Shown: piece after piece, positions 1-23,794 of the stretch
Layout: the number at the start of each line of letters is the position of its first letter
Numbering within the stretch: the stretch's first letter is position 1
IMG/VR virus record: IMGVR_UViG_3300033145_000192
Location: 64,001 to 128,000 of that record
Origin: a virus
Reading direction: 5' to 3' (one strand)
DNA: 64,000 nucleotides
Notes under the pieces: model-generated
Told to the model about the DNA's origin: nothing
Database searches by the model: none
The model's input: only the letters and a program-made list of their open reading frames with translations
Position numbers and translations under genes: made by a program

Positions 1-864
1 AGACCTGTCCCCAATTCCCCACTTGTATTTGTCCCAACTGCAAGTTTCATTGTCTCCAGTGAGCCTGCGCTTATAGTCGTGTCCATACACGTCGGGAAAT
101 CCATTCTTCATAAAATCAACCGCTAACACCTCTGCTGCGTCTCTACATGCGGCAAATCTATTCCTCATTTCAACAGTGGAGAAATTCGTATGTGCTCCAG
201 CGCCATTCCAGTTTCCACCAACGGGCTTGGAGTCTAGCTTAATCGTTACGCCATGATTCTCGGCAATACGATAAAGAAGATAACGAGCCAGCCACAGATG
301 GTCAGATACTATCAGTGGGCTCTCTGGTCCAATCTGGAACTCCCACTGTCCTGGCATTACCTCGGCATTAACGCCAGCTATCATAAGGCTGGCCTTAACG
401 CACGCCGCTAGATGTTCTTCTACAATCTTGCGTCCAAATGCTTCATCTGCCCCAACTCCACAATAGAATGGACCCTGTTGAGCGGGATATCCGCCTTCTG
501 GCCAACCCAATGGAGTGCGGCCACAAAACATAGTATACTCTTGCTCTATGCCAAACAGTGGTTCAAGTCTACTAAAGGAATGATATGTTTTCACCATGCT
601 ATGTCTATAGTTGGTGGCAGACGGAGTCCCAAAATAGTTACATACCTCGCATAGCGCCAATAAGTGTGGCCGACCGCGTAACGGGTCACCAATCACATAG
701 ACTGGTTTTAGAATACAGTCTGATATTGTGCCTTCGGCTTGACCGGTGCTAGAGCCATCGAACGTCCACTCTGGAACATCGTCACTGGTAATAACTCTGG
801 TCTTTGCTCTTAGCTTTGGAACTGGTTTAGTCCCATCAATCCAGATATATTCGACAAATTTCAT
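1..864 (-). CDS. glnII: Glutamine synthetase type II, partial (runs off left edge; not in the ORF track)
   Basis: Manual translation from ATG at 864 (ATGA overlap with upstream stop): MKFVEYIWIDG..LRAKTRV..PEWTFDGSSTGQAEG..SDCILKPV..FGIEQEY..QGPFYCGVGAD..GVNAEVMPGQWEFQIGP..NWNGAGAHTNFST..RRLTG..ET..WGIGDRS. These are diagnostic GSII motifs; 288 open codons to position 1. Confidence 0.93.
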   Translation of the reverse strand, partial: MKFVEYIWIDGTKPVPKLRAKTRVITSDDVPEWTFDGSSTGQAEGTISDCILKPVYVIGDPLRGRPHLLALCEVCNYFGTPSATNYRHSMVKTYHSFSRLEPLFGIEQEYTMFCGRTPLGWPEGGYPAQQGPFYCGVGADEAFGRKIVEEHLAACVKASLMIAGVNAEVMPGQWEFQIGPESPLIVSDHLWLARYLLYRIAENHGVTIKLDSKPVGGNWNGAGAHTNFSTVEMRNRFAACRDAAEVLAVDFMKNGFPDVYGHDYKRRLTGDNETCSWDKYKWGIGDRS

Positions 865-1520
865 ATGATTGCCTTATCTGGAACCTTTCTTTTTTGCTTA
901 GAGGCAACTATAGGCTTGTCGAAAAAGTCCTTTGCGGCCTGCGGGGTCTTTGTAACGATAGCAAAGATTCTATCATCACCCTTCTTCTGAATCCGGTCCC
1001 TGGCCCAGCCCCAGCAATCCTCAATCATAGCGCCCCTTCTGCCGTGTAGCTCTGGACTACAAAGAATGACCTTGCCATCCTTCGGCACCTGATTTAGCAA
1101 CCCGCCGTATGCTGATGGATTCCAACTGCGCAATGGGTCTAGCCAAAACTTCTTACTTCTAGCTCCACCATGACCTCTTACGGATTCATATTCACTTAAT
1201 CTGTCCCAGACGGGCAGCTTCGCTTGGTGGGCATAGTATGCGGATGGATGTGGCACGTCGAACAGGCCAATGAGCTTCGTCCCAAATGCCTTGACAATCT
1301 TCTTAAGCCACTCAACGTCTAGGTTTTGCTTGATATCGACAAAGAACCTTTCGTAGCCAGAATGGTCGAAAATCATGCCTAGTTCGCCTGGCCTTGATTC
1401 GTTTGGCTCGTGAAACGCCCTAATCTTGCCATCGTGACTAATCTGAACATCTATTTCAGCCCCGTATACGCCAATGTTAACGGGCTTCCACTTGTTGACT
1501 CTATGAGCAATTATCTTCAT
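861..1520 (-). CDS. Glycerophosphodiester phosphodiesterase-like (PLC-like TIM barrel) protein
   Basis: MKIIAHR..GAEIDVQISHDGKIRAFHEP matches the GDPD N-terminal AHR / E-x-D / H motifs; likely start at ATG 1520. Confidence 0.6.
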   Translation of the reverse strand: MKIIAHRVNKWKPVNIGVYGAEIDVQISHDGKIRAFHEPNESRPGELGMIFDHSGYERFFVDIKQNLDVEWLKKIVKAFGTKLIGLFDVPHPSAYYAHQAKLPVWDRLSEYESVRGHGGARSKKFWLDPLRSWNPSAYGGLLNQVPKDGKVILCSPELHGRRGAMIEDCWGWARDRIQKKGDDRIFAIVTKTPQAAKDFFDKPIVASKQKRKVPDKAII

Positions 1521-2586
1521 GTCTTTCCTTTTCCTCCAGCATACTCGCCACAATCTCATCGACTGATTCTTCGAGTGTGATTTCTGTTTCGAACCCTAGC
1601 ATATCCCTAGCCTTATTGACTAGTGGGACTCTCTTCTGAACATCGCACTCAAATGGCTTGTCGGAGACATATCTGAAAGGCAACTCTCCGTTGATTCTGG
1701 TCCAAACCATCTTCGCTAACTCCAACACCGATGTCTGTCGCGGACTAGAAAGGTTGAAGTCTTCATTCTGGAGTGGATTCTCCATAGCAAGTCGGATGCC
1801 TCTTGCGATATCCTTGCCATGAGTATAGCAACGAATTTGACTACCGTCTCCTAGAATATGAAGTGGATTCTGGCCAGAAAGGACTTTGTTCACAAGGTCT
1901 GGGAGCACATGGCTCATGCGCAACTTCACGTTGCCACTATAGATTTCCTCTTCTCCAACTGCCTCATCCTCACCAAGCCCAACGCAATTGAATGGCCTTA
2001 CGATTGTGAACGGCAAGCCATACTGCTGCCATGCACCCTTACAGAAATACTCTGATGCGAGCTTCTGGAATCCATATGTGCTATTTGGTGGGCCAAATAC
2101 CTTCTCTGCTCCTTCTGGAGTCGGCCACGGAGGCCAGAACTCAGAAGCCTCAAACAGATGCTTCCACGCCTCATCGGCTCCTTCAAATACCATTGAGGAG
2201 CTAATGACCACGACCTTCTTTATCTTCATCCATTTGTCTTTCCACAACTCAATGGAGGCGTCAAACGTATTTGATAGAATCCGCTCGTTCGTAGATAGTA
2301 GGTCATAGGCATACTTGTGAAAATAGCTAATGCCACCAATCATGGCGGCACATGCAATCACATAGTCTGGATTATGAGTTGAGAAATCAGGAGTCTCTTT
2401 GGACAAGTCCAATTCTACTAGGCGAAAGTTCTCATGGGAGTCATGCTCGCGCTTTACGCGGCCATACTTTGAGAAGTTGTCATAGCCAATGACGCGATAA
2501 CCACGGGCTAGAAGGTCTCGGCACAGGTAGCCGCCGATAAATCCTTGTGACCCAGTAAGTGCAACGGTCTTCATTCTGTTTGTCAT
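1501..2586 (-). CDS. NAD-dependent epimerase/dehydratase (extended SDR), UDP-glucuronate decarboxylase (UXS/ArnA-C)-like
   Basis: TGSQGFIG Rossmann motif, SSSMVF, YGFQK (YxxxK), IVRPFNCVG, GDGSQIRCYTH and DVQKRVP resemble ArnA/UXS decarboxylases. Confidence 0.8.
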   Translation of the reverse strand: MTNRMKTVALTGSQGFIGGYLCRDLLARGYRVIGYDNFSKYGRVKREHDSHENFRLVELDLSKETPDFSTHNPDYVIACAAMIGGISYFHKYAYDLLSTNERILSNTFDASIELWKDKWMKIKKVVVISSSMVFEGADEAWKHLFEASEFWPPWPTPEGAEKVFGPPNSTYGFQKLASEYFCKGAWQQYGLPFTIVRPFNCVGLGEDEAVGEEEIYSGNVKLRMSHVLPDLVNKVLSGQNPLHILGDGSQIRCYTHGKDIARGIRLAMENPLQNEDFNLSSPRQTSVLELAKMVWTRINGELPFRYVSDKPFECDVQKRVPLVNKARDMLGFETEITLEESVDEIVASMLEEKERHEDNCS

Positions 2587-3215
2587 TTTTTATCTCGTAT
2601 TGGCAAATCGGGTTGGCCTGTTTCCATGTAGGAACTGGCTCTAGGCGCGATTCGCTTATAGTTATGATTCATGATTGGGACTGCGTGAAAACACGCTCTA
2701 CAGAAGTCGTCCTTTTTCTCAAAGTCAATGACCTTCTTTATGTTGCCAAACTTGGCATTACTTAACATTCTTCTGAGACCTGCTTGATTTGGGGCCCACC
2801 AACAAGATTCTTCATCAAGAAATGTCATGATTGGACGGTTACCACTCAGATAGAGCTTTGTCTCCAACACAAGAAGTCCCTTCGTTATCCTTCTTAGTCT
2901 AGATAGGAGCGACATAGGATTCTCTACATGATAGAGGACGCCATTACATGAAACAACGTCATATTCCATTATTCGTAGGAATGATTCCGAAAAGATATCA
3001 AGTTGAACAAAGTCAAAGCCAAACTTGGCAATATTCCTTTTCAGACCTTCACATACACACATGTCAATCCCAATGGCGTGTTTTGCACCTCGCCTAAGAG
3101 CCTCTACGCACAGTGAACCATCCCAACAGCCAACCTCACAGAAGGTCTTTCCCTCCATGTCGATAGGCATATTGAATAGCTTCCATTTTTTGCTCAATCC
3201 CGAAACTGTTGTCAT
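2583..3215 (-). CDS. Class I SAM-dependent methyltransferase (CmoB/DUF1698-like)
   Basis: TFCEVGCWDG motif I, AIGID, YDVVSCNGVLYHVENP, GLLVLET. Confidence 0.8.
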   Translation of the reverse strand: MTTVSGLSKKWKLFNMPIDMEGKTFCEVGCWDGSLCVEALRRGAKHAIGIDMCVCEGLKRNIAKFGFDFVQLDIFSESFLRIMEYDVVSCNGVLYHVENPMSLLSRLRRITKGLLVLETKLYLSGNRPIMTFLDEESCWWAPNQAGLRRMLSNAKFGNIKKVIDFEKKDDFCRACFHAVPIMNHNYKRIAPRASSYMETGQPDLPIRDKK

Positions 3216-4018
3216 TTCAGTCTCATGTGCTCAAAAACAGTGGTGCGATAGAGGTCGTTGTCCTTGACTATAGTGCGGAAGATTTGTGCGTCAATGCCTA
3301 ACCCCTCTGCCAGTCTGGCGAAAGCCGCTGTGTCCTTCGGGAGACACACGCCGCCGAAGCCACGGAAATTCTCGTTGCAATCCAGGTAGAGATTTGTCAT
3401 TGTTGGTCGCGCCACAGCCGCGCTTTTAATTTTCGAATAGTCAGCCCCAAGTTTCTGGCATACCTCATAGAAGCCATTGGCAAATATGACCCTCATGGCA
3501 TTGAACACGTTCGAGAAGTATTTGGTCAGTTCTGCCTCTGTTGGAGACATCTTTACGAACTTCTGAGGATAGTGTCCGTGTGCCTCTTTGACCAAATCAA
3601 ACATGTGACTTGCAAACGGCCCGCTAACGCCAATAACACAGACATCATGGTGTTCAGTGAAGTCGCTAATGGCGTGTCGTTCACGCAAGAACTCTGGAAC
3701 AAAACAAATCATCGTTGGAGCGTATGTGTCAACTAGCATCTCTGTAAAGCCAGGAACAGTCGTTGATTTCACAACGATTACGCCCTTATAGTAGATTGCC
3801 ACCAGGTCTTCAATCACCCTTTCGACAATCGACGTATCACATGACCCATCTGCTGACTCCGGGGTCGGAACACAGATAAAGCACACCTCTGTATCTAGAA
3901 CGTCAAGAAGCTGTGTTTCCAGCACAATATCATGGACTCGAACCTCGTGGCCCAATTTCTCCATTCCATATTTCACAGCGCCACCAACCATACCAACGCC
4001 TACAATGCCTACCTTCAT
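3212..4018 (-). CDS. ugd: UDP-glucose/GDP-mannose 6-dehydrogenase family protein (short form)
   Basis: VGIVGVGMVG, FICVPTP, VVKSTTVPG, PEFLRE, EAELTKYFSN, catalytic GFGGVCLPKD. At 268 aa it lacks the usual C-terminal domain. Confidence 0.85.
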   Translation of the reverse strand: MKVGIVGVGMVGGAVKYGMEKLGHEVRVHDIVLETQLLDVLDTEVCFICVPTPESADGSCDTSIVERVIEDLVAIYYKGVIVVKSTTVPGFTEMLVDTYAPTMICFVPEFLRERHAISDFTEHHDVCVIGVSGPFASHMFDLVKEAHGHYPQKFVKMSPTEAELTKYFSNVFNAMRVIFANGFYEVCQKLGADYSKIKSAAVARPTMTNLYLDCNENFRGFGGVCLPKDTAAFARLAEGLGIDAQIFRTIVKDNDLYRTTVFEHMRLK

Positions 4019-4470
4019 TTGTCACCCCTATATAGTTTTCCAGTTAGCTTAGGTCCAAGCTGAACCTCTCTGCCTGTTAGTTTGGACTTTACTCTGTAAC
4101 GACAAGTCCATAGGTCCGTTCTCATATGGTCACTGTGTCCACACTTACAGCACATTACCTGCCACCAGCATGGATGCGATGTCATCACTTCGCCATCTTC
4201 TACTAAGTGATAGCAATGTTCACATTCCGGCTCAGGCTTCGCTTCTACTAGGAGAAGTTCTGGCGACCAAGCGTTGTATTTCGAGGCTAATTCCATTATC
4301 GCAGTAGAATTTTCACAGCCACCAAACCTGCCACAAGTGCTACAAGACCAGCAGGCGTAACATCCGGCCTTTGAATAGACCTTTTTTGGCTCTTCGCAAC
4401 AACATGGAAGGCTAACTTTGCCTGACTCTACGGACCTCATAATTACCTCGATGTCAAAATCATGGCACAA
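4015..4470 (-). CDS. Cys-rich hypothetical protein (several CxxC motifs)
   Basis: CSTCG, CEHC and CCKCG motifs; translationally coupled to its neighbours. Confidence 0.5.
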   Translation of the reverse strand: MCHDFDIEVIMRSVESGKVSLPCCCEEPKKVYSKAGCYACWSCSTCGRFGGCENSTAIMELASKYNAWSPELLLVEAKPEPECEHCYHLVEDGEVMTSHPCWWQVMCCKCGHSDHMRTDLWTCRYRVKSKLTGREVQLGPKLTGKLYRGDK

Positions 4471-5132
4471 TTTCGTTTCATGCCTTTTCCTAGACCTATA
4501 TCTAATTCTTCACTCAATGATACTATTCTCTCTGGACCGACATCGGTATACAGGAGAATATCATGTGTCTTGCCTATTGCCTTCTCAAACAAAAACTTCT
4601 GTTCGCCAGTGCCTTTTCGGTCACTGTATGGAGACTTCATGTCATGGATGAACACTGGTTTTCTAACTTTGCATAGAAAATTGTTCCAGTAGTATTCAGC
4701 CATGTTCCACGAATGTTGGCAGTCAATAACTATCAAGTCAGACGCCTTGCATGCAGATAGAATTCTGTTTTGGAACTTCTTGTTCATTATGTTGCATACG
4801 GTGAACGGGATTTTGTCAAGTCCACCGGACAAGGCACCTTGCTCACTTAGCTCTAGCGAAAACGCACGCACACTGATTCCCATTAGTCGCATCAGTATTG
4901 TGCTTATGCCTACGCCAAACTCTGTTACAGTCTTGGCCCCAATATGTCGTATGTAGCAAGACAAGATATGAAGGTCAAGAGGACACATCGCATCGCCAAT
5001 GAAGAAACCAGGAGTATATGGAATTACGTTACCAATATCAATTAAATTGGCCAAATTCTCATCATGTGGAATCTTGCAACAGCCTGGAACACTAAATGCA
5101 AGCCCCTCCTTTTGTCTTTGGTTAGGCGTCAT
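4443..5132 (-). CDS. Class I SAM-dependent methyltransferase-like (Methyltransf_24-type)
   Basis: TVTEFGVGIST, DLIVIDCQHSW and VFIHD motifs. Confidence 0.55.
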   Translation of the reverse strand: MTPNQRQKEGLAFSVPGCCKIPHDENLANLIDIGNVIPYTPGFFIGDAMCPLDLHILSCYIRHIGAKTVTEFGVGISTILMRLMGISVRAFSLELSEQGALSGGLDKIPFTVCNIMNKKFQNRILSACKASDLIVIDCQHSWNMAEYYWNNFLCKVRKPVFIHDMKSPYSDRKGTGEQKFLFEKAIGKTHDILLYTDVGPERIVSLSEELDIGLGKGMKRNCAMILTSR

Positions 5133-5137
5133 GCTAT

Positions 5138-5725
5138 TTAGCTCCTTAGTGGATTGTTCTTTGCATGCTGAACGATATCTGGGTCAATAACTGCCTCCAG
5201 TGCTTCAACAGTCCCGCCACCAAGGAATTCACACAAGCCACCAAGAACCCCTGCATCCTTCTCTATGACCTTCTGGAATGGCAGTGAGTAAGCCTTGCAT
5301 CTAGTGGATTTCAAGTATCTCTGTGTCTCGTTTTGTATCCTGTTGAACGTCCCACAAATGGCAGGAATTGCCTGCGGCTTCCATCCAGTATACAGCTTAT
5401 TGCCACTAGCAATGCCCTCCTCTGGGTCTCTACTAGTCACAATGACGTGGACATCAAATCCTAGCTTCTGCAAAACAGGTATCCACTGCGCATACAGGTG
5501 AATCAGCTTAACGGCGTCTGCACCCTGCTCCTCTAGCTTTAGAATGGCTGGAGGAATGGCGTGTCTTTGAGCATTACTGAGCGGATTCTCGTTGTAGCCG
5601 CTTCGAAGTCCAAACTCCTGCATCGGATTGCACTCTCCGAAGCTGTAGCCACACGTTTTTACCAACTCGCAAGCTAGCGAAGTCCCACTTCTGCCTGGCC
5701 CGCACACAACAACAAACTTCTTCAT
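5138..5725 (-). CDS. Sulfotransferase family protein
   Basis: VVVCGPGRSGTSL 5'-phosphosulfate-binding loop, NPLS, and VIVTSRDP 3'-phosphate motif; start at 5725 (or 5737). Confidence 0.7.
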   Translation of the reverse strand: MKKFVVVCGPGRSGTSLACELVKTCGYSFGECNPMQEFGLRSGYNENPLSNAQRHAIPPAILKLEEQGADAVKLIHLYAQWIPVLQKLGFDVHVIVTSRDPEEGIASGNKLYTGWKPQAIPAICGTFNRIQNETQRYLKSTRCKAYSLPFQKVIEKDAGVLGGLCEFLGGGTVEALEAVIDPDIVQHAKNNPLRS

Positions 5726-5733
5726 GTCTTCCC

Positions 5734-6468
5734 TCATAGCTTTGTAAAGTATCCATGGCACTGATAGCCGCAATACAATTGACTGATACCCTCTGGCTTG
5801 TCAGCAAAGAACTCATCACAAGCCTTCTTCACTCCAGGCAGCGCATTGAGCACGTTGAGGTTCCTGTAGTTCTTCTTCCTCAACGAACCTAGTGAATCAA
5901 AAACCGGCTTAACGATGACTGGGTCGCAATAGTCATCTACTATGCAAATCCCGCCACTTGAGAGCCTCGGATATACCAACTCAAGCGATTCCATGATTGA
6001 GGTATAGAAGTCACCATCAAGATGGGCGAAAACGATTTCAGATGGAATGTCGCTGTCGGTAATCTCGTTAAACCACATTCTGTGAATAATCGGGTGCCTG
6101 AGCTTGAATTCGTCAAATAGCTCAAATATGTGGGCCTCATCGAACCCCTCTCCAGCTATGAGATGCTTTGGGGCATTCGGATTCGCGGACATTTGTCCTG
6201 CTCGGAATGGCGTATGGCCGTCTTCCGGACGCTTGCCAGGTAGGCCCTCAAACGAGTCGTATAGATGGACTTCTCTGTCGATTTCAAGAACATCAAGCAC
6301 CTTCTGCATGATTCTCGCAGTTTTGCCCCTATGACATCCAAGCTCAACGATATGCCCAGGAATGTTCAGCAACATGACCCTCATCAACAGATGATAGATG
6401 TTCATGGCCTGTTCCATGTTCACCATACCGGATGTCTTGACCATATCTACAATGAAGTTGTTATCCAT
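5734..6468 (-). CDS. tylF: TylF/MycF/NovP-family sugar O-methyltransferase
   Basis: VELGCHRG, HLYDSFEGLP, FAHLDGDFYTS, GGICIVDDY. Confidence 0.88.
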   Translation of the reverse strand: MDNNFIVDMVKTSGMVNMEQAMNIYHLLMRVMLLNIPGHIVELGCHRGKTARIMQKVLDVLEIDREVHLYDSFEGLPGKRPEDGHTPFRAGQMSANPNAPKHLIAGEGFDEAHIFELFDEFKLRHPIIHRMWFNEITDSDIPSEIVFAHLDGDFYTSIMESLELVYPRLSSGGICIVDDYCDPVIVKPVFDSLGSLRKKNYRNLNVLNALPGVKKACDEFFADKPEGISQLYCGYQCHGYFTKL

Positions 6469-7037
6469 TAGTATACCTTGTATCCCTTAATGCTTCCCTG
6501 CTTTGTATCCTCATCACCACCATACAGACATTCAAACCCAAATAATTCCATCTCTCCACATCTTGTGGATTTGGATAGATGCGTTTTATCCTTGTCATAT
6601 CCACTGCCCCAAGGCAAATGAATGATGCATAGTTTCTTTGCAACTATGTCGATGCGCCTGAATGTATCAGCCCATTCGTCTTTGTAGATGTGCTCTGGAC
6701 CGGCAGACCAAAACACAAGGTCAAAGCTATCCTCATCAAACACCTCATCAATCAGCCTTACGTCTCCAGCCACAACGTCTCGTATGTATGGGTTATTCAC
6801 CTTTTTTTCTATGTATTCATCGAATAGCTCTAGTGTGACGAAATCAAGGTCACCAGGAAAAACTTCATCAAGAAAGCGCAACCACCTGATTGAATCAACA
6901 CCTCCATGTATGCCCAAGCCCACATTCAGAATAGACTTGATACCCATATCCTTGACTGCCTCGCGAATTTCGTTCCACCCATAGCCAAGCATGACTTTCT
7001 TCCACTTGTCGAAATCTACCTCTTTTCTCTCAATCAT
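6468..7037 (-). CDS. Class I SAM-dependent methyltransferase-like (paralogue of 10486..11166)
   Basis: SILNVGLG, GDVRLID, FDLVFWSAGPEH, IHLPWG. Confidence 0.65.
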   Translation of the reverse strand: MIERKEVDFDKWKKVMLGYGWNEIREAVKDMGIKSILNVGLGIHGGVDSIRWLRFLDEVFPGDLDFVTLELFDEYIEKKVNNPYIRDVVAGDVRLIDEVFDEDSFDLVFWSAGPEHIYKDEWADTFRRIDIVAKKLCIIHLPWGSGYDKDKTHLSKSTRCGEMELFGFECLYGGDEDTKQGSIKGYKVY

Positions 7038-12316: not shown

Positions 12317-12323
12317 TTAACCC

Positions 12324-14573: not shown

Positions 14574-14766
14574 CCGCCTTTATGTGTCGTAGAAAGTAAA
14601 GCGTCTTCCTTGTTGGATAACAGTTCGAAAGTGCCTTCTTGTCAAGGGGTAAACTTATTACACAAACAGGTCCACCACAATAGCAGACCTGTTCGCTTAA
14701 AGGCATTATCTCTTTACAATCAGCACACTCTCTAGCCCAAAAGGTGCTTTCTGAAGAACCATGCAC
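14560..14766 (-). CDS. Small Cys-containing hypothetical protein
   Basis: 68 aa with CADC..CYC; fills the gap between coupled genes. Confidence 0.4.
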   Translation of the reverse strand: MHGSSESTFWARECADCKEIMPLSEQVCYCGGPVCVISLPLDKKALSNCYPTRKTLYFLRHIKAGGDG

Positions 14767-15604: not shown

Positions 15605-15605
15605 T

Positions 15606-16346: not shown

Positions 16347-17130
16347 TAACTAACTCCACCAGCCTTTTATCATAAACCATGGTAGTGGGTCCATGTGGTC
16401 CAGCATCAAACCACACGGAGCTGATATCAGCCAGTCGCAATGATTCTTCGTCTATAAGACGAGCGAGTGCTCTACCTGATTGGCCATGTTTCCTGTAGTT
16501 GAAATACTTGTCTAGGATAAACGAATCCTTGACAAATCCATAGTGAATCACCTTTAGCTTTGCTGTGTCTCTACCAATTATACCCTTCGGAACCAAGTCT
16601 TGGTGCAATCCTTCTTGCGGCTTGTAGTGTAACTCCGAAGTTAGCCTCCAAAGTCTACAAAATAGACCCTTGTTCCACAGTTCATCCACGCGATAGTATC
16701 GGTCTGTCCTCCACAAGTTGACGTTGAACAGATTGTAGGCTCCACGCTTGGCAGCCTCACACAATTCACGAACGCGCCCCTTCTCGCCTCTAGCTTCGAT
16801 GACCTCATCTACATCGAGCCAGATTACCCAGTCTGTGCCGATTTCTCTGCATTTACTGAGAGCTTCCGCCTTGTGCTCCATTTCGTGCTTAAAATCATTC
16901 TTCTGTCCATGGATGACGTGAATTTCTTTCAGTCTAACACCACACATACTGAGACTTTTCTTACACATCTCAAGATATCCGACACTACCATCAGTCGAGC
17001 AGTCATCATACATAACAAGAGCATCACAGTATTTAGCGATGCTCCTTATGAAACGACTCAAATTGGTCTGCTTGTCCCACCCAGCTTTCGTGTGTTCGTT
17101 GAACATTTGGGCCATACATGTTAGTTTCAT
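16312..17130 (-). CDS. Glycosyltransferase family 2 (tandem paralogue of 15606..16346)
   Basis: MFNE, YDDCSTDGS, WVIWLDVDE, IHYGF. Confidence 0.8.
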   Translation of the reverse strand: MKLTCMAQMFNEHTKAGWDKQTNLSRFIRSIAKYCDALVMYDDCSTDGSVGYLEMCKKSLSMCGVRLKEIHVIHGQKNDFKHEMEHKAEALSKCREIGTDWVIWLDVDEVIEARGEKGRVRELCEAAKRGAYNLFNVNLWRTDRYYRVDELWNKGLFCRLWRLTSELHYKPQEGLHQDLVPKGIIGRDTAKLKVIHYGFVKDSFILDKYFNYRKHGQSGRALARLIDEESLRLADISSVWFDAGPHGPTTMVYDKRLVELVNENCSNDTGIQ

Positions 17131-18056
17131 CTAACCTCTTCCCCTCTTAGTCTTCCCACAATGGTTGCAAGTTTACGAGCATAGAACTCATAGGAAAGAA
17201 AGCCTACGCCAGCCCTGCGGCTGACCGATGGTGCCAGAATGGTATGTAGGATGCTTGCCAATTCATCCGTGGCGTTTGGCGGAAACAGATAGTCCACCGG
17301 AAGGTCTGCACCACACCAGCCGACATTTGCTGCGATGATAGGAATGCCCTTGGCATTTGCCTCAATCACGCTCATTGGGCCGCCCTCCCACAAGGAAGGA
17401 ATTAGGAGGTAGTCAATCTTGTCATACTCTTGGGCGTAGCCTTCTGGATATGACAGGTTTGTATCTCCAAGGTCAGTGACCTCCATGCCAAATGCTTCCA
17501 TCTTTTCAACGACCGGACCCCAGTCATTGCCTACAAAGTGCCACTTGAATGAGTCAAGTATCCACATATGTTTGTCAAGCATCTCTGACATGAAATGGAA
17601 TCCCTTACCCTCATACTTACCACGCTGGAAAATTCCGATAGTGGGCTTCTTCAAGTAGAAACCTTCTGGAATCTCACCAGGGTAAATGAGGTCCATCTTG
17701 GACTCCGGATAGAACTGCTTGAACACATCATAGTATCTAGTGCATTTGTGAACTATGAAATCAAGCTTGAGCCAATGTGGCTGAATGTGCTTTTGGTCAT
17801 TCTCATGTAGATGGGTAAAGTAGCCAATATCAAGAACTGAAGTGGGTCCGCGATAACAGTTCTGGATATCTACGTAGTAATTGGCTGCACAGTCTACCCT
17901 TGGGACATGGGACAATCTCCAGCGAATTCCTTCTTTGATTGTTCCATTATGCGGCTGTCTAGTGTGCAAGTCTTGCCTGTTCCCAGCCTCTACAATTCGT
18001 TCGGCTATCTTCTGAAGAATCCAGCCTGATGATACGGTTACGACATTTATGTGCAT
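17127..18056 (-). CDS. Glycosyltransferase family 4 (GT-B)
   Basis: KGFH, DYLLIPSLWEGGPMSVIEANAKGIPIIAANVG; likely start ATG 18056. Confidence 0.8.
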   Translation of the reverse strand: MHINVVTVSSGWILQKIAERIVEAGNRQDLHTRQPHNGTIKEGIRWRLSHVPRVDCAANYYVDIQNCYRGPTSVLDIGYFTHLHENDQKHIQPHWLKLDFIVHKCTRYYDVFKQFYPESKMDLIYPGEIPEGFYLKKPTIGIFQRGKYEGKGFHFMSEMLDKHMWILDSFKWHFVGNDWGPVVEKMEAFGMEVTDLGDTNLSYPEGYAQEYDKIDYLLIPSLWEGGPMSVIEANAKGIPIIAANVGWCGADLPVDYLFPPNATDELASILHTILAPSVSRRAGVGFLSYEFYARKLATIVGRLRGEEVR

Positions 18057-18072
18057 GATAACCCCGTGTGAG

Positions 18073-18804
18073 CTAGTCGTTTCCAAAAAGCTCTTTTGCA
18101 AGAGCCTTACAATCATCAGCAGCGGACTTTTCTTCTGCCGCCCTGTTTCCAGTAATTTGACCACCATGAACTCTGAATGCTGACAGTATGGAGCCATTGA
18201 CCACAGCAAATTGGGTGTGCTGTGCTGCTCTCACTGTCCAATGGAAGTCTTCACAAATTCTATCCCAGTATGGTCCAGTCTTGTCCCATAGCGCCTTTGT
18301 ATACAAAAACGCCATCCCGACATCGTATCCTTCTATAAGGTCTTTGCCAGTCTGTGGTTGAGCATGTAGAACATCTCGCAGCTTCATGCCATCTTCGCGC
18401 ATGAAACAGAAGTCGCCATAAACAAGCTCAATTGACTCCTCAGCCTTAATCTCAAGCGTTTTCATTGCGTCTACTAGAGTGAGAAGGAAGTGCGGGAAAT
18501 AGATGTTGTCGTCGGAAACCCATGTGCAGTATTTACCGCGTGCTCTTTCGTGACCATGGTTTAGCGCACTGCCAGTGCCACCGTTCTCCTTCTTGTAGTA
18601 GCGCAAGTTGCGGAAAAATGAGAAATGGTCTACGACCTTCTTGGTGTTGTCGGTGCTACCATCATCCACGACAATGATTTCAAAATCGCGGAATGTCTGC
18701 GTGACAAGGCTATTGAGTCCCTGGGCTAAGAACTTCTCTCCATTATACACTGGTAGCACTATGCTGATAAGCGGCTCTTTACTATCTAGTTCTATTGTCT
18801 TCAT
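18073..18804 (-). CDS. Glycosyltransferase family 2
   Basis: ISIVLPVYNGEKFL, IIVVDDGSTD, NGGTGSALNHG, TWVSDDN, EDFHW. Confidence 0.9.
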   Translation of the reverse strand: MKTIELDSKEPLISIVLPVYNGEKFLAQGLNSLVTQTFRDFEIIVVDDGSTDNTKKVVDHFSFFRNLRYYKKENGGTGSALNHGHERARGKYCTWVSDDNIYFPHFLLTLVDAMKTLEIKAEESIELVYGDFCFMREDGMKLRDVLHAQPQTGKDLIEGYDVGMAFLYTKALWDKTGPYWDRICEDFHWTVRAAQHTQFAVVNGSILSAFRVHGGQITGNRAAEEKSAADDCKALAKELFGND

Positions 18805-18805
18805 A

Positions 18806-19828
18806 TCACACCTTAATCACATTGATGAATGGTTTCATTCTTTGCCATGGCCCCATCATAAATAGCACGATAGTTGGTAGTGCCTCTTCGGCATACACAA
18901 AGTCCGTCTTCCAGTCGGCAAACTCCTTGTCCTCATATGTTTCCTCATACTCATCATAAATGGGTAAGCCCTCAACCGGCATGGGATGCAGCCCTGGATA
19001 GGAAAGGATTGTATTGCGCTCCTCTGTGTGCTCCATGAACTCTACGAACTTTTCATCAAACTTATCAGATGCGTTTGTTCCATCTTCCAGGTCAAACTTT
19101 CCAAGCTCTGACTTGTAGAAATCTCTCTTCATCTCATGGAACTTCTTGCCCTTAGCGTGTCCATAATGATAGATGTATAGGTCTACCATTGTGAATCGCT
19201 TTGGCTGATAGCTAGCATCGAAATACGTGCATCTACCATCTGGAGCAGTTACCACTGGATGCGTGTGGTATCTCATGCCTGGCTGGTAACGAATGATTCT
19301 CTGGTGTTGAGGTTGCCATTCTGGATGTGGGGCCTTTACGTGCCTAATGTCTCTGTAGAAATGAAGAAACGTAGGAATAATCTCAGATGCATCGGGACGC
19401 GACTTAATGGCCTCGCGGACCCTATCAATCTCCCCTTCGTGATAGAACTCATCGCAGTCAACAATGAATAGCCATTCGCCTTCCTTTGAGTGGTCTATGA
19501 ACGTCTGCTTTTGTTCTTCAAGGCTCTTAAAGAATCTCTTCGCCTGGAATAGTTCGATTTTGTTATCTGGGTCTGGAAACGCTCGTATGATATCGAGTGT
19601 TCTGTCCGTAGAATGACCTTGCACTGTGCTATCCGGACGGCCCTCAACAGCCCCTTCGACAACTCGGATAATATCAAACTCATCGTAGTTATTCCTTAGA
19701 TTGGCTTCAATCCAACCCTCCTCATTGTGTGCGGCAAGACACTTGACAAGCACTGGTTCATACTTTGGCACATTGACTGTGCTAAGTATCTGTGTCATTT
19801 GCTTTACTGGAACTTGAGGCATGTTCAT
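18806..19828 (-). CDS. Glycosyltransferase family 2
   Basis: AAHNEE, VVEGA..HSTDRT, WLFIVDCDE, IYHYGHAK; start ATG 19828 after GAGGAGG. Confidence 0.75.
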   Translation of the reverse strand: MNMPQVPVKQMTQILSTVNVPKYEPVLVKCLAAHNEEGWIEANLRNNYDEFDIIRVVEGAVEGRPDSTVQGHSTDRTLDIIRAFPDPDNKIELFQAKRFFKSLEEQKQTFIDHSKEGEWLFIVDCDEFYHEGEIDRVREAIKSRPDASEIIPTFLHFYRDIRHVKAPHPEWQPQHQRIIRYQPGMRYHTHPVVTAPDGRCTYFDASYQPKRFTMVDLYIYHYGHAKGKKFHEMKRDFYKSELGKFDLEDGTNASDKFDEKFVEFMEHTEERNTILSYPGLHPMPVEGLPIYDEYEETYEDKEFADWKTDFVYAEEALPTIVLFMMGPWQRMKPFINVIKV

Positions 19829-20925
19829 AGCGCCTCCTCGATTTTCTTCACTGTATTGGCCCACGTAAATTCATTCACAGTATCATTCAAGCCTGGGAAT
19901 CCCATTGCAACTTCGTGGTCTTGCTTAATCTTGTGCGCTCTGCGCATTTGATGGACTAGTTCGTCTACACTGAACTTGCACCAGTTTCCATTACCGTGGA
20001 ACCAAATACCGTCTTGTGCGGATTCCATGCCGTCAGGCTCCACAAGGAGTGAGTTTGCATCATTCAAGAATTCCGTATGGCCACTGTAGTTGGTCGCAAT
20101 ACTAGGCACACCACACGCCATCAACTCTAGAATTTCTAGGTTCCAACCTTCGGCATGAGATGGGAAGACACCAAAGTCTACCTGGTTGAATAGCACCCTC
20201 AATTCCGCTTGCGTGTTCATCCTAGATAGAATCTTGATTTTGCTACCCATCTTAGAAGAGATATACTTCCTCTTCCATTCCTCATTGCCACCAGATGAAC
20301 GCAAGAACGGATTGTCATTCAACATCCATAGCTCTACGTCGTCATCAGGCTCAAATGCCATGTTGAAAGCCTTAAGCAATTCCTCGTGACCCTTTCTCTT
20401 TTCCCACTTTCCAATGTTGATGAAGATTGTAGACTCATGAGTCCAGTATGGACGATGCTTACGAGCTTCTTCGTCACGATAGAAAATCGTTGGGTCAACT
20501 CCTAGAGGGATAACATGGACGGGAATATCGAATTGTAGCGCAGGAGGCGGCGAAGACTGAACAACATCCCTTGCCCATTGCGAGCATACGAAGATGGCAT
20601 TCAAATTCTGAAGGTGATGAAGCTCAATTTCATTGAAAGTATCAAGCTCGAAAATTGGCCAACCGATTCTCTTGCCTGCGCCTGGGAACATATCAAGTTG
20701 GTTCTGGTGCCAGATGCGAATAGATGGAGCCTCCACATTATACGTCCTGGCATTCTTGATGGTTTCATCAATGATTTTCTGGGCGTGTGGGTCTCCACTC
20801 CATTCTGGCTTACCAATCGGCCAATAAGACACAGAGTGTCCAGCGTTGTATAGATGCTTGAGCGTATTGTATCCAACAACTCCATATCCCAATGGATTGG
20901 TAGGCGCTACAAGATTAACGAACAT
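19825..20925 (-). CDS. Glycosyltransferase family 4 (GT-B)
   Basis: FINIGKWEKRKG, FPSHAEGWNLEILELMACGVP.IATNYSG; start ATG 20925. Confidence 0.85.
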   Translation of the reverse strand: MFVNLVAPTNPLGYGVVGYNTLKHLYNAGHSVSYWPIGKPEWSGDPHAQKIIDETIKNARTYNVEAPSIRIWHQNQLDMFPGAGKRIGWPIFELDTFNEIELHHLQNLNAIFVCSQWARDVVQSSPPPALQFDIPVHVIPLGVDPTIFYRDEEARKHRPYWTHESTIFINIGKWEKRKGHEELLKAFNMAFEPDDDVELWMLNDNPFLRSSGGNEEWKRKYISSKMGSKIKILSRMNTQAELRVLFNQVDFGVFPSHAEGWNLEILELMACGVPSIATNYSGHTEFLNDANSLLVEPDGMESAQDGIWFHGNGNWCKFSVDELVHQMRRAHKIKQDHEVAMGFPGLNDTVNEFTWANTVKKIEEAL

Positions 20926-22076
20926 CAGTTCACCTTCTTCCATTGGTTGTAGTATTTCAAGATTGAATCTCTGAGCCTCGGGCCAATTAGCTCATTGCTA
21001 AAGCCCTCAACTCTTTCCCTAGCAGCCGCTTGCATCTTTGGCCACATAGCCCACTCACCAACATCTCTATGCTGCCATAGGTCAAAGGCGTTCCTCATTG
21101 CTGCTTTCAAATCACAAACATGAGGCTCTCTCCAGTTATCAGCGGCGGTATACATAAACTCATGCGGGTGAGGCATATCACAAACTGGACTGCTATTTGA
21201 AGCAACCAGCCAGCCACATTCATGGTTCACGAAGGCGGCAGGGCCAGTGTGGTCTGTAGCAATCACAGGGAGGCCGTAGCCTAATGCATCGAAGTGTGGG
21301 ACTCCCCACCCCTCTCCTCTTGATGGAAGCGCGTAGCAATCCGCAGTGGCATATAGCCTCTCGATGTCTTCGTGGGACATCACTTCATGGATGAGTTTGA
21401 TTGGTGGATAATTCTTAAGACGCAATATCCCCTTCATGGCATTGATAATTGACAGAATTCTATTGTTTTCCTGCACACCATCTTGTGGCCCCATGTAAAC
21501 CTTGAGGATAAGAACTACTGGGTCCTCTCTAGTAAACTCAGTAAAGTATGCCTTTAGAAGTGGGTCCATTCCCTTCTTCTTCGAATACTGCAAGATAGAC
21601 AAAAACTTGAAGCTATCGTCAGCCCCAGGAAGAACGAATGGCTCTACTTTCTTCTTATACTTGGTCATGTTGAACGAGTATGGAACCACTACGATTGGCT
21701 TAACAACACCACTCTTCTGTGCGGCAATTCTGTTCTGTTCAATTGGCACAAGAACCAAGTCCATTTGATTCAGCATATCAACCCACTGCTTAGGAATCCT
21801 ATCGGTTTCCCAGCAGAATGCGTTAATGTTGAACACTCCATCCTTACGCTCAGTCTCGTTTGGCGTAGTTTGCTGAATAACAATGTCTACGTCCTGCGTG
21901 TCCCTGTTCGCAAGTTTCTTCTCACGCTCACTTCTCTTGTATTCTCCACCATCGTATCTTAGGTCTCTGGTGACGAGATGCATTCCAGCAATATCAAGAG
22001 CCCTAACGTAATTCCTGGCAGCTTCAGCATATCCACTGAAGTCCAAAAGTGGGCCCACATATAGAGTTTTAAGCAT
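20925..22076 (-). CDS. Glycosyltransferase family 4 (GT-B)
   Basis: SGYAEAAR, KKKG.DPLLKAY, YALPSRGEGWGVPHFDALGYGLPVIAT. Confidence 0.87.
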   Translation of the reverse strand: MLKTLYVGPLLDFSGYAEAARNYVRALDIAGMHLVTRDLRYDGGEYKRSEREKKLANRDTQDVDIVIQQTTPNETERKDGVFNINAFCWETDRIPKQWVDMLNQMDLVLVPIEQNRIAAQKSGVVKPIVVVPYSFNMTKYKKKVEPFVLPGADDSFKFLSILQYSKKKGMDPLLKAYFTEFTREDPVVLILKVYMGPQDGVQENNRILSIINAMKGILRLKNYPPIKLIHEVMSHEDIERLYATADCYALPSRGEGWGVPHFDALGYGLPVIATDHTGPAAFVNHECGWLVASNSSPVCDMPHPHEFMYTAADNWREPHVCDLKAAMRNAFDLWQHRDVGEWAMWPKMQAAARERVEGFSNELIGPRLRDSILKYYNQWKKVN

Positions 22077-23794
22077 CAGACTATCATCCCCGGCATAGTA
22101 TTTGTGGAAGAAACACCAGTAGATGTATCAACCTCTATGCCTCTAAGAGCCAAGCTCCGTGTCCATCTAACTTCCTCAAACTTGTTCCTGGCATTTACTT
22201 GGTCACGGAAAAACGCCTCAACATTGTCCCTGGGAGTTCCACCCTTAAGACCACTCATCCAGTCATTCATCCCCTTCTCTTCTGGCTCACGACCAAGGAT
22301 GTTCGTGTAACACCATCTGACGAAAAGCTCATCTGAAATATCGCCCGATGGCCTCTTTGCTGTTACTGACTCAAACTTTGGAGGCTTGTCCCAAGTTGCG
22401 CTTCTCTCAAAAAGCTCAATGTCATTGAGGATTCTCTCAATCTTTTCTCCTGTAAGGTCCCACGAATGCATGCGCTCTGCGCAAGCCCTCGCCTGTGTGG
22501 CCAGCTTCTTCCGCTTATTCTCATCAAACGCCAACAGTTCCATCTTGTTAGCCATATCATCAATGTCTGGCAGAGCCCTAATCGCCTCTGTCTCTGCTTC
22601 GTGATATAGACGCTGAACCTTGATTGGCAATCCACCACCATTCTCTACATGGTCTTCCATCGCGGAGTAGTTCTGATACAAGCCAGCAATTCCACAAGCC
22701 TTTGATTCCATGATTGGAAGTCCCCAGCCCTCACAAATGGCCGGATGGACATAAATGTCTATGATATTGAATAGTTCAATCAGGTCTTCTTCCGACACTC
22801 CACTGTGGGTGCTCGGCATATGTGCGGCCATCTTTCCACACTTCCTGCACGCAGTAGCGCCCTGTGGAGTAGATGGAGCAAACCAATGAACATAGACATA
22901 GTCACAAGCATCGCACTTATAGGTGAAGAGCGTGTGTCTTTGAAGATTGAAATGCTGCACCAGATGCGGAATATTCCACCCCATATCTGGCCAACTGGTG
23001 TGGCAGAATAGCGCACTGTGTTGAATCCTGAGAGCATTAAACTCCTTCGCATCCAGCTTACCACCAGCCTGGACCTTCTTCTTAATCCTGGCTATCTTCT
23101 GTGGGGTGACCCACTTCCTGCGCAGTTGTGCATATGCGTGGAACAAGTCTGGATAGAGCTTACGCTTTTGATTTCTCATCACTGTGCCAAACACAAGTAG
23201 GGTTGGCTTAAGAATAAACTTGTCCCTAATCTCCGTGTGTGGAAGTGGCTTCCATACGTCAAGATTGACACCGGGGGAGGTAACGTCTGCCACCTCGATG
23301 CCATCTGCTTCTAGGACACGTTTGCCGTAGCGACTGTATGTTGAGATTGCGTCGGCCTGTTTGAAGATTCCCTTCACCCACTGCTTCTTTTGTGGTTGAG
23401 AATCTACGGTTGGCATTAGATAAAGCTTGAAGTTGCCACGGAATCTGGAAGCCTGTAGGTGTTCTACCATCCAGGGGTCGCGTGGGTCGAAAACAATATC
23501 TGGCTGGAAATCAGCTAGGATTGCATCAATCTTATACTTGCCAAACTGGTTTTGTGGGTGGCTGTCGTAAATCTTCTTCTCGCCCTCGTTTAGCGGAAGA
23601 ATACCATAGAATTTCCATGGCAACTTCTTACTCTCAGGACATACTGGCGGAGCATACGAACCAACTTCTGCAAGTTCATACTTTCCGGTAGCATGGAGCC
23701 TCTTTAGAAGCTCTCGATTGAAGATTGAAAATCCCGTAGCTAGAAAGCTGGCTTCGCCAGATATTAGAATTCTTTTCTTAGTGGGACTCGTCAT
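22076..23794 (-). CDS. Glycosyltransferase family 4 with Zn-ribbon insert and DUF4214-like C-terminal domain
   Basis: RNQKRK, YVHPAICEGWGLPIMESKACG; CDAC..CRKC insert; C-terminal FVRWCYTNILGREPEEKGMNDW. Confidence 0.85.
   Translation of the reverse strand: MTSPTKKRILISGEASFLATGFSIFNRELLKRLHATGKYELAEVGSYAPPVCPESKKLPWKFYGILPLNEGEKKIYDSHPQNQFGKYKIDAILADFQPDIVFDPRDPWMVEHLQASRFRGNFKLYLMPTVDSQPQKKQWVKGIFKQADAISTYSRYGKRVLEADGIEVADVTSPGVNLDVWKPLPHTEIRDKFILKPTLLVFGTVMRNQKRKLYPDLFHAYAQLRRKWVTPQKIARIKKKVQAGGKLDAKEFNALRIQHSALFCHTSWPDMGWNIPHLVQHFNLQRHTLFTYKCDACDYVYVHWFAPSTPQGATACRKCGKMAAHMPSTHSGVSEEDLIELFNIIDIYVHPAICEGWGLPIMESKACGIAGLYQNYSAMEDHVENGGGLPIKVQRLYHEAETEAIRALPDIDDMANKMELLAFDENKRKKLATQARACAERMHSWDLTGEKIERILNDIELFERSATWDKPPKFESVTAKRPSGDISDELFVRWCYTNILGREPEEKGMNDWMSGLKGGTPRDNVEAFFRDQVNARNKFEEVRWTRSLALRGIEVDTSTGVSSTNTMPGMIV

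Follow-up and report, generated by a model that had tools for sequence, protein, structure and literature searches.

Does a phage that carries a long run of sugar-activating and glycan-tailoring genes assemble a glycan of its own and, if so, on what? The question is raised by the window analysed here, a 64,000-nucleotide stretch of an uncultured virus genome (IMGVR_UViG_3300033145_000192). The genome is complete (177,375 bp, 114-bp terminal repeat, CheckV completeness 100) and holds TerL, portal, MCP and tape-measure-like genes; it belongs to a genuine phage. The glycan block extends over about 28.4 kb of the minus strand, starting at window position 23794 and reaching a point about 4.6 kb outside the window, ahead of its first base (genome position 59366), so that the "23-kb operon" of a preliminary description made from the letters alone does start at 23794 but continues beyond window base 1. 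Every gene is on the minus strand, and at 30 of 33 junctions the neighbouring genes overlap or leave a gap of no more than 7 nt. Immediately upstream lie the replication genes (SSB, split DnaE, exonuclease, DnaB and UvsX), which bears out both the co-oriented, tightly coupled run and the position directly downstream of phage replication genes that had been described. The stop of a small sigma gene overlaps the start of the first glycosyltransferase (GT) gene, and the sigma gene has the same position in two relatives (L154 and L157). The part of the block outside the window encodes, by Pfam, an NTP-transferase, an unknown 303-aa protein, a HAD protein, a mannose-6-P-isomerase-type cupin and a GDP-mannose 4,6-dehydratase (GMD). 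Features within the window are as follows (ST, sulfotransferase).

23778-24140, minus: small sigma-70 region-2 protein (Pfam Sigma70_r2 1.3e-6)
22076-23794, minus: hallmark GT-B (GT4), first block gene, with zinc-ribbon insert (CxxC...CxxC) and C-terminal DUF4214 (Pfam)
20925-22076, minus: GT-B (GT4) (Glycos_transf_1 3.5e-14)
19825-20943, minus: GT-B (GT4) (Glycos_transf_1 9.3e-17)
18806-19864, minus: GT-A-like, weak GT2 matches (Glyco_tranf_2_4 7e-5)
18073-18804, minus: GT-A (GT2) (Glycos_transf_2 7e-28)
17127-18209, minus: GT-B (Glyco_trans_1_4 1.4e-9)
16312-17130 and 15606-16346, minus: GT-A paralogue pair (Pfam; blastp 43% identical, 7e-60)
14732-15604, minus: S1 (trypsin-like) serine peptidase (Trypsin_2 5.6e-12; TAAHC and GNSGG motifs)
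13611-14573, minus: SDR, 4-oxidase-like (Pfam; best PDB match 6VO6)
13169-13618, minus: cupin, 3,5-epimerase-like (Pfam)
12324-13172, minus: RmlD-like 4-reductase (Pfam; matches RmlD homologues)
11096-12316, minus: UDP-GlcNAc 2-epimerase (Pfam)
10486-11214, minus: methyltransferase-like, weak; paralogue of 6468-7037 (blastp 45% identity, 1.5e-38)
9722-10522, minus: fifth GT-A-fold transferase, GT2-like (ESM Atlas structure, TM 0.72-0.79 to GT2 clusters)
9072-9722, minus: ST (Pfam)
8432-9121, minus: ST (Pfam)
7725-8465, minus: APS kinase with N-terminal DUF2061 (Pfam 7e-52)
7030-7728, minus: ST-fold protein (ESM Atlas fold)
6468-7037, minus: methyltransferase-like, weak (weak Methyltransf_11, E 0.02)
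5734-6468, minus: TylF-type O-methyltransferase, firm (Pfam)
5138-5773, minus: ST-like (weak Pfam 0.08; PAPS-binding motifs GPGRSGTS and SRDP)
4443-5132, minus: methyltransferase-like (motif only)
4015-4470, minus: Cys-rich protein (sequence)
3212-4018, minus: UGDH-like, C-terminally short (Pfam; PDB sequence search)
2583-3215, minus: methyltransferase, firm (Pfam)
1501-2586, minus: SDR, UXS/ArnA-like (Pfam; PDB sequence search)
861-1559, minus: protein of unknown type (sequence)
1-864, continuing 125 nt beyond the window start, minus: type-II glutamine synthetase (1e-121 to PDB 4BAX)

Nine GTs are encoded in the block, four of GT-B and five of GT-A fold, precisely the numbers given in the preliminary description; eight are recognised by Pfam, and the fifth GT-A (9722-10522), which has no Pfam match, by its ESM Atlas fold. 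The latter belongs to a family of 182 homologues, mostly viral, without a Pfam model. The hallmark GT has at least 1,338 homologues, found on 165-183-kb contigs; the best 120 share its architecture, cysteines C294, C297, C316 and C319 are invariant, and four homologues contain inteins. Its model (pLDDT 89) best matches B736L of chlorovirus NY-2A among PDB entries (3OY2, E 9.5e-19) at 14% identity, a predicted likeness that is structural and no evidence of orthology, and GT4 fold matches also include the small-acceptor enzymes MshA, BshA and sucrose-phosphate synthase. The GT-A-like protein at 18806-19864 shows 61-89% conservation in relatives, among PDB sequences chondroitin synthase K4CP comes nearest to the GT2 at 18073-18804, in a match confined to the N-terminal 100 aa, and the listed TTG start of the GT-B at 17127-18209 is probably too far upstream.

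The accompanying enzymes largely agree with what had been described. Six nucleotide-sugar enzymes are found by Pfam in the window (SDR, cupin, RmlD-like, UDP-GlcNAc 2-epimerase, UGDH-like and SDR), the GDP-mannose branch lying outside it; the short UGDH-like form is kept in relatives at 263-281 aa. The APS kinase and four ST-like genes are also confirmed, the latter by Pfam (two), Atlas fold (one) and weak Pfam plus motifs (one), while two of the five reported methyltransferases are firm and the other three weak or motif-based. The 5'-phosphosulfate-binding loop and 3'-phosphate-binding R...S motif of PAPS sulfotransferases are present (Pfam, motifs and folds), with G12, K13, G15, S16, R90 and S98 invariant in the sulfotransferase alignment (A2), and we predict that the ST-fold genes encode PAPS-dependent sulfotransferases. 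The DUF2061 of the APS kinase is a two-helix membrane anchor. The S1 peptidase, missing from the earlier gene list, has transmembrane (TM) helices at both its N- and C-terminal sides and a catalytic domain predicted from hydropathy to lie outside the cytoplasm; it occupies the same spot in seven relatives (L010, L011, L086, L087, L154, L157 and the P0028 contig).

The complete genome has no match to an initiating phosphoglycosyltransferase (Bac_transf/WbaP or Glycos_transf_4/WecA; controls matched in 10/14 and 12/14 genomes), nor to Polysacc_synt or ABC2_membrane (controls matched). None of its genuine ORFs has more than two TM segments, and no ORF in the cluster loci of ten relatives has three or more. 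The reported absence of Wzx/Wzy, an ABC exporter and an initiating phosphoglycosyltransferase thus extends to the whole genome, and flippase or polymerase genes elsewhere, which the preliminary description had said would undo its reading, were not found. With sugar enzymes and GTs present but no phosphoglycosyltransferase, flippase/polymerase or ABC-2 permease, the block is not a Wzx/Wzy- or ABC-dependent polysaccharide locus.

Many uncultured phages of 165-183 kb share this synteny, and at least nine independent contigs, of differing samples and sources, have the gene order joined to the phage genes for DnaE, SSB and sigma; the block marks out a widespread clade of phages, in which it is conserved. 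Its content differs among relatives, with sulfation genes present or absent and a PEP mutase in one relative, as fits an exposed, diversifying surface structure. Inteins typically sit in indispensable phage genes, and the clade-wide conservation of the first GT together with its intein-bearing copies suggests that the pathway matters for propagation and is not accessory. The autonomous glycosylation system in a bacteriophage that had been proposed is upheld as a conserved soluble-enzyme pathway in a genuine phage.

Our preferred reading, to which we give somewhat less than an even chance, is a conserved cytoplasmic phage pathway whose glycan is built on a cytoplasmic acceptor, with structural proteins favoured, to give a polyanionic, methylated virion coat. 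The phage would make its own activated sugars through a GDP-mannose/GDP-6-deoxyhexose branch, a UDP-GlcNAc 2-epimerase branch, the 4-oxidase/3,5-epimerase/4-reductase trio and the UDP-sugar dehydrogenase and decarboxylase-like pair; the nine soluble GTs would join these into a heteroglycan, which would then receive O-methyl groups and sulfate, the latter from PAPS that the phage APS kinase makes from host APS. Because the phage has no genes of its own for lipid-carrier initiation, flipping, polymerisation or export, the glycan would most likely be placed directly on a cytoplasmic acceptor, with phage structural proteins favoured; the phage enzymes could in principle also draw on lipid-carrier and export enzymes of the host. 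We infer from the genes the chemistry of this glycan, its being a single product shared by all of the enzymes and, above all, its acceptor.

The balance shifts to virion decoration because of where some ST-fold genes are placed. Genome-wide there are seven, four in the block and three outside, and two of these three belong to the head and packaging module. One, between the portal and MCP genes (NKWYS 2.6e-11, a family annotated as capsular-polysaccharide), keeps its position in a relative (L158), and the top 50 structural matches of its AF2 model are all PAPS sulfotransferases (Z 8.2-9.7); the second, a paralogue of 5138-5773, is just upstream of the TerS-like, ERCC4 and TerL genes. This placement is circumstantial, since morons also insert in structural modules. 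Hints against a virion target are that the GT block adjoins the replication genes and is about 40 kb from the head genes, that the APS kinase is anchored and that the S1 protease faces outward. The structural proteins show neither a Ser/Thr-rich tract nor an evident glycosylation tail.

The membrane-tethered protease and anchored APS kinase keep host-envelope remodelling as a rival, albeit a rather unlikely one. Soluble phage GTs, STs and methyltransferases would act at the inner membrane face on a host lipid-linked intermediate, begun by a host WecA- or WbaP-type enzyme and exported by a host flippase or ABC transporter, with changes to receptors (superinfection exclusion), the sheath or the biofilm matrix as the effect. 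The conservation of the outward-facing peptidase within the block, the fusion of the APS kinase to DUF2061, the capsular annotation of NKWYS and the GT2 at 18073-18804, closest in sequence to chondroitin and heparosan synthases, favour this account, which is also the published reading of cyanophage and pelagimyophage clusters (PMC1079782, PMC7029224, PMC12801897). It has to contend with the lack of any phosphoglycosyltransferase, flippase, polymerase or ABC permease in the complete genome and of polytopic proteins there or in the ten related loci, with ST-fold genes within the head and packaging module, and with nine GTs that imply a de novo structure to be accepted by host flippases and ligases. 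Known phage serotype-conversion modules carry their own membrane components, unlike the block, which is no Gtr-type module: the genome has no match to a tyrosine integrase (Phage_integrase), making a lysogenic-conversion role unlikely, and no polytopic membrane proteins. Were the host envelope nevertheless the target, the block would amount to a large remodelling toolkit, without export genes, carried by a lytic phage, and its mechanism would still want explaining.

Less probable again is some other product: a sulfated, methylated oligosaccharide that is free or linked to a small molecule, a glycolipid or glycosylated host proteins, acting inside the cell or released at lysis, for example as decoy, matrix or signal. 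All of the enzymes are soluble with no evident acceptor, and the small-acceptor fold matches of the GT4 enzymes would suit such a product; conservation across the clade, the intein-bearing hallmark GT and the STs of the morphogenesis module better fit particle production, and we know of no precedent for a free or small-molecule-linked phage glycan.

Glycosylation of modified phage DNA bases, evading restriction, is highly improbable. The block does directly follow replication genes, and phage GTs that decorate 5hmC are known (bioRxiv 10.1101/2023.12.21.572611), but the genome lacks a ThyA-family hydroxymethylase (PF00303) and a C5 DNA methyltransferase (PF00145), both matched in controls, and nine GTs, seven STs and several O-methyltransferases far exceed any known DNA glycan; the phage also has several complete nucleotide-sugar pathways. 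The DNA target that the preliminary description kept as an alternative is weakened by these two absences; Tet/JBP (PF12851) had no match in the genome, nor in any control genome. Misassembly of a host polysaccharide locus into a phage contig, also raised there, is ruled out by synteny in the at least nine independent contigs and by GC content and strand skew that are uniform over the junction.

The literature already describes large glycan clusters in aquatic phages that are lytic: P-SSM2 has 24 'LPS' genes (PMC1079782), S-SCSM2R has 22 cell-wall genes, 13 GTs among them (PMC12801897), and pelagimyophage host-recognition clusters are GT-rich (PMC7029224). Presenting a giant-virus-scale system in a bacteriophage as novel was therefore an overstatement, and what is new here is the three ST-fold genes outside the block. 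Cyanomyophages (P-SSM2, S-SCSM1 and S-SCSM2R) and pelagimyophages resemble our phage in being lytic and aquatic, with at least 20 sugar-nucleotide and GT genes whose function is read from genes alone. They are T4-like with clusters in a tail-fibre island, whereas our phage, with a DnaE-type split polymerase, a TerL less than 29% identical to that of any cultured phage and a block behind replication genes, falls outside the T4-like 'LPS'/HRC clusters; it further differs in its PAPS supply gene, its seven ST-fold genes and its hallmark GT, 9722-type GT-A and sulfotransferase 8432, for which tblastn found no match in 50,697 GenBank phage records.

Closer to the preferred virion reading, mycobacteriophage soluble GTs without export genes decorate capsid and tail-tube proteins that are made in the cytoplasm, with a virion glycoprotein demonstrated by mass spectrometry (Freeman et al. 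2023, Cell Host Microbe, as described in PMC12619734). The block shares phage-encoded soluble GTs and a lack of export machinery with these phages; there the glycoprotein is demonstrated, whereas here the acceptor is a proposal. The mycobacteriophage systems reportedly have few GT genes, two to four, and no sulfation. Chlorovirus capsid glycans are made in the cytoplasm by soluble viral GTs and methyltransferases (PMC4691112), and giant-virus glycosylation clusters vary clade by clade (PMC4691112, PMC10117803). Giant viruses (chlorovirus Vp54 N-glycans, Megavirinae fibrils) share with the block their own nucleotide-sugar pathways including GMD, soluble GTs and O-methyltransferases, and B736L is the solved structure that the hallmark GT most resembles, but they are eukaryotic Nucleocytoviricota, whereas ours is a tailed phage. 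Bacterial sulfated polysaccharide loci, as in Vibrio sp. KMM 8419 (sulfated capsule; PMC11641403) and cyanobacterial sulfated EPS, likewise cluster GTs with PAPS-dependent sulfotransferases but also carry genes for initiation, for flippase/polymerase or for ABC export, all of which are missing here.

That this uncultured ~165-185-kb clade coats its own virions with a cytoplasm-made sulfated, O-methylated heteroglycan, perhaps phosphonylated in some members, using STs encoded in the head-morphogenesis module, is a tentative proposal, more doubtful than not. To our knowledge, viral enzymes have not been reported to make sulfated glycans. If true, the proposal would mean the first sulfated glycoconjugate from virus-encoded machinery and would give virions a polyanionic surface of a new kind; were the glycan carried by the particle, complex self-made glycans would be common to giant viruses and tailed phages, the latter adding sulfation, which alters surface charge, adhesion to mucus or exopolymer and recognition by grazers or antibodies. 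Several families that GenBank phage records lack are common among uncultured viruses (the DUF4214 GT4, the 9722-type GT-A, the short UGDH-like/SDR pair and viral sulfotransferases without Pfam matches), and current annotation therefore under-counts viral glycobiology. The ST-like gene at 5138-5773 has no counterpart among the 301 Anaerolineae genomes searched, and GMD similarity gives a weak hint of a Chloroflexota host.

The preliminary description placed at the start of the window a 23-kb operon for a glycan made by the phage itself. The block is real, but it runs about 4.6 kb past the window start, to a total of about 28.4 kb, or 16% of the phage genome. It is as tightly packed as proposed (30 of 33 junctions overlapping or at most 7 nt apart), and Pfam, structure-based look-ups and motifs agree on four GT-B and five GT-A-fold glycosyltransferases (GTs) and six nucleotide-sugar enzymes. 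The APS kinase is likewise secure (7e-52), and all four sulfotransferase-fold proteins were recovered: Pfam identifies two, the fold a third, and a weak Pfam match together with both PAPS-binding motifs the fourth. The claim of five methyltransferases stands in part: two are firm, but the others comprise two weak paralogues and one motif-only candidate. The main block genes are:

Window 22076-23794, minus strand: first block gene (the hallmark GT), a GT4 of 572 aa that carries a zinc-ribbon insert and a DUF4214 domain
Window 14732-15604, minus strand: trypsin-like S1 peptidase between the GT sub-block (window 15606-23794) and the sugar sub-block, missing from the preliminary description
Window 9722-10522, minus strand: fifth GT-A, no Pfam match, predicted fold GT2-like (TM 0.72-0.79)
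Window 8432-9121, minus strand: sulfotransferase
Window 5138-5773, minus strand: sulfotransferase-like gene
Genome 63875-64864 (L004:13875-14864, phage genome segment; overlaps window 1-864), minus strand: type-II glutamine synthetase, 1e-121 to PDB 4BAX
Beyond the window start, minus strand: NTP-transferase, conserved unknown, HAD enzyme, mannose-6-phosphate-isomerase-type cupin and GDP-mannose 4,6-dehydratase (GMD; 5e-124)

The glutamine synthetase is a genuine eukaryote/actinomycete-type enzyme, so that a reading as a glutamine-synthetase-like amidoligase was rejected; its role may be to provide glutamine for making amino sugars, or it may belong to nitrogen metabolism independently of the glycan. 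The S1 peptidase has a transmembrane helix at both its N-terminal and C-terminal ends and intact His and Ser motifs. The unknown at 861-1559 and a 303-aa protein had no matches in PDB sequence searches, and PHROGs gave no useful match for the block unknowns.

The window is part of one contig of 177,375 bp with a 114-bp direct terminal repeat, classed as DTR in IMG/VR with a CheckV completeness of 100%. All credible window genes are encoded on the minus strand, and neither GC content nor GC skew changes across the window. Along the direction of transcription, ribonucleotide reductase, large terminase, portal and major head protein (genome 131641-132645) are followed by proteins of tail-fibre-like and of giant tape-measure-like or tail type, then by a UvsX-like recombinase, DnaB helicase and exonuclease, then by a split DnaE-type Pol III alpha, SSB and a small sigma-70 region-2 protein, and last by the glycan block. 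Four small ORFs separate the polymerase halves (window 24722-26308 and 28061-29854, minus strand), of which the N-terminal ORF holds the PHP/core part and the C-terminal one the finger/HHH part, and the split is kept in the distant relatives L154 and L157. No tyrosine integrase was found in the phage genome. Megablast of 24 kb against GenBank phages returned no matches, and tblastn against the same phages found only distant relatives for DnaE and less than 29% TerL identity to any cultured phage. The terminal repeat, full completeness, lack of a tyrosine integrase and lack of a close cultured phage together indicate a real, complete and probably virulent phage of an undescribed lineage. Promoter and terminator scans gave counts no higher than shuffled expectation, and no sequencing runs were listed for a 9-kb stretch.

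The possibility that the block is a misassembled host locus is not borne out, as its synteny recurs in independent relatives. In IMG/VR relatives with polymerases 63-93% identical, the GT block again comes immediately after the polymerase, SSB and sigma genes, and the full layout (GTs, peptidase, SDR/cupin/reductase/2-epimerase, 9722-type GT, short UGDH-like gene, SDR, NTP-transferase, HAD, cupin and GMD) is kept in two contigs, one from ENA (168,636 bp) and one from Logan (170,628 bp). In L154 (180,647 bp) and L157 the block order recurs at about 52% identity, running primase, ThyX, DnaE-N, dUTPase, DnaE-C, SSB, sigma, GT(DUF4214), GT1, GT1, GT2s and trypsin-like peptidase, with the SDR/cupin/reductase run following where the retrieved locus extends that far. 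The S1 peptidase is kept in every relative at the border of the GT and sugar sub-blocks. At least 1,338 homologues of the hallmark GT exist; the top 120 share its architecture at 47-88% identity, and at least 11 homologues lie on contigs of 165-183 kb. From this recurring synteny and these many homologues we conclude that the block is an ancient core trait of a large clade of uncultured phages. Four homologues (P0134, P0180, P0200 and P0237) contain inteins (Hint, Intein_splicing, LAGLIDADG), which is unusual in a glycosyltransferase and suggests that the gene is indispensable.

Block content varies within the clade. The SDR/epimerase run is missing from one close relative, another shows no APS kinase within reach, and in the 168.6-kb relative the GT block is headed by a PEP mutase, an enzyme of phosphonate biosynthesis (L087:1-976), which suggests phosphonate decoration instead of, or besides, sulfate in some members. 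Other viral backbones carry modules of the block as well, for instance beside a family-B polymerase on a Tara Oceans contig; these modules are the 9722-type GT-A, the pair of short UGDH-like and SDR genes, the oxidase/epimerase/reductase trio, the 2-epimerase and methyltransferases. The APS-kinase query of IMG/VR retrieved mostly stand-alone DUF2061 genes rather than syntenic clusters; this two-helix domain forms the N-terminal 68 aa of the APS kinase (window 7725-7930), and as a small stand-alone gene it occurs in more than 60 IMG/VR contigs (L015-L085), sometimes adjoining GMD or UGDH genes.

The reported lack of export machinery extends from the window to the whole complete genome. Bac_transf, Glycos_transf_4 (WecA/MraY), Polysacc_synt (Wzx) and ABC2_membrane had no matches there, in searches positive in 10-14 of 14 control genomes. 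By a genome-wide hydropathy scan, genuine ORFs have at most two membrane-spanning segments; the few ORFs with three to five are antisense shadows of well-supported genes. The phage genome also has no ATP sulfurylase, so its APS kinase must use host APS.

Three further sulfotransferase-fold genes lie in the rest of the genome, bringing the genome-wide total to seven:

Genome 27760-28785: second NKWYS-type gene
Genome 134775-135512: between portal and head proteins; Pfam NKWYS 2.6e-11, weak Sulfotransfer_1
Genome 141981-142616: just upstream of TerS-like, ERCC4 and TerL; GAPRTGTS loop; paralogue of block gene 5138-5773 (5e-17)

The protein encoded between portal and head proteins has the invariant GKxGS loop and an R...S motif, and all of the top 50 structural matches to its AlphaFold model (pLDDT 79) are PAPS sulfotransferases (Z 8.2-9.7, 160-194 residues aligned); the gene's position is kept in the relative L158 at 72% identity. 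The count of seven, with two of the genes inside the morphogenesis/packaging module, gives the strongest hint so far that sulfation has to do with the particle. Against decoration of the virion count the lack of Ser/Thr-rich or tailed acceptor candidates among the phage proteins and the roughly 40 kb between the GT block and the head genes.

Clusters of this type have been read as remodelling of the host surface (PMC1079782, PMC7029224, PMC12801897), and this published view is fitted by the membrane anchoring of the APS kinase through DUF2061 and by the S1 peptidase, predicted to face outward from the membrane, both of which also count against the virion. However, initiation, flipping and export would then fall to the host, for a glycan assembled by nine transferases foreign to it, and whereas known conversion modules carry their own membrane components, the sampled viral loci bearing block modules all lack polytopic membrane proteins. 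DNA glycosylation is a weak candidate, as neither a ThyA-family hydroxymethylase nor a C5 methyltransferase was found in the genome and the pathway's scale far exceeds known DNA glycans; Tet/JBP likewise had no matches in the phage genome, in a search whose control was also silent.

Decoration of the virion, which we favour, has a structural parallel. Chlorovirus NY-2A B736L (3OY2; E 9.5e-19, TM 0.79 by target) is the nearest match to the model of the hallmark GT (pLDDT 89). B736L is a GT4 that binds GDP-sugars and is believed to work on the capsid glycan (PMC4691112), although at 14% identity the modelled likeness is one of fold, not orthology.

As to the glycan itself, the GMD, cupin, NTP-transferase and HAD genes would yield GDP-mannose-derived 6-deoxyhexoses. 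The SDR closest to PDB 6VO6, a cupin and an RmlD-like reductase look like a 4-oxidation/3,5-epimerisation/4-reduction trio with an L-configured product; UDP-L-FucNAc synthesis (FnlABC/CapEFG) by this run and the 2-epimerase was rejected, the SDR not being of Polysacc_synt_2/CapE type. The 2-epimerase would give a ManNAc-type sugar, and the short UGDH-like and UXS/ArnA-like SDR genes suggest a uronic acid, perhaps decarboxylated to a pentose. Sulfate and O-methyl groups would complete an acidic, partly capped heteroglycan. A weak DHH/DHHA1 phosphoesterase is encoded elsewhere (L001:16491-17567, plus strand); NrnA-type enzymes hydrolyse pAp, a by-product of sulfotransferases, and it could, speculatively, support heavy sulfation.

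Lytic aquatic phages with large GT and sugar clusters have been known since 2005, and mycobacteriophages and giant viruses are proven to glycosylate their virions. Viral sulfotransferases and cysC genes found in isolation have been described as auxiliary, with an unclear role (PMC10580990; bioRxiv 10.1101/2020.02.13.942896). What is distinctive here is the combination of a first GT that defines the clade and can bear inteins, a gene for PAPS supply, seven sulfotransferase-fold genes, of which some lie in the head module, and the proven absence of export genes from a complete genome. Of 50,697 GenBank phage records, five match the APS kinase, and there is no match to the hallmark GT, the 9722-type GT-A or sulfotransferase 8432.

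Regarding the host, the nearest bacterial GMD homologues are mostly from Chloroflexota (Anaerolineae, Caldilineae; 60-65% identity). The sulfotransferase-like gene 5138-5773 had no match in 301 Anaerolineae genomes, and the hallmark GT gave only generic GT4 matches in three Chloroflexota genomes.

Several further features were noted. Pfam and PHROGs gave the large tail proteins only a weak discoidin match and weak tape-measure matches; tail-region proteins of 652, 1262 (the weak discoidin match excepted) and 1846 aa have no family match, nor do two ORFs of 930 and 768 aa (window 38254-43219, minus strand) that overlap by about 130 nt when their starts are taken as listed. The genome carries about 43 tRNA genes that serve most amino acids (L002:3699-18950 and L003:695-9252; genome about 23.7-49.3 kb), together with a tmRNA call whose tag peptide is atypical, a translation toolkit of unusual size for a phage of 177 kb. 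The early region encodes a PARP-like protein (L001:5135-6403, plus strand) with WGR, PARP regulatory and PARP catalytic domains (9e-26), and two adjoining saccharopine-dehydrogenase-like genes (L002:9547-12425, plus strand) possibly serve polyamine or homospermidine-type metabolism.
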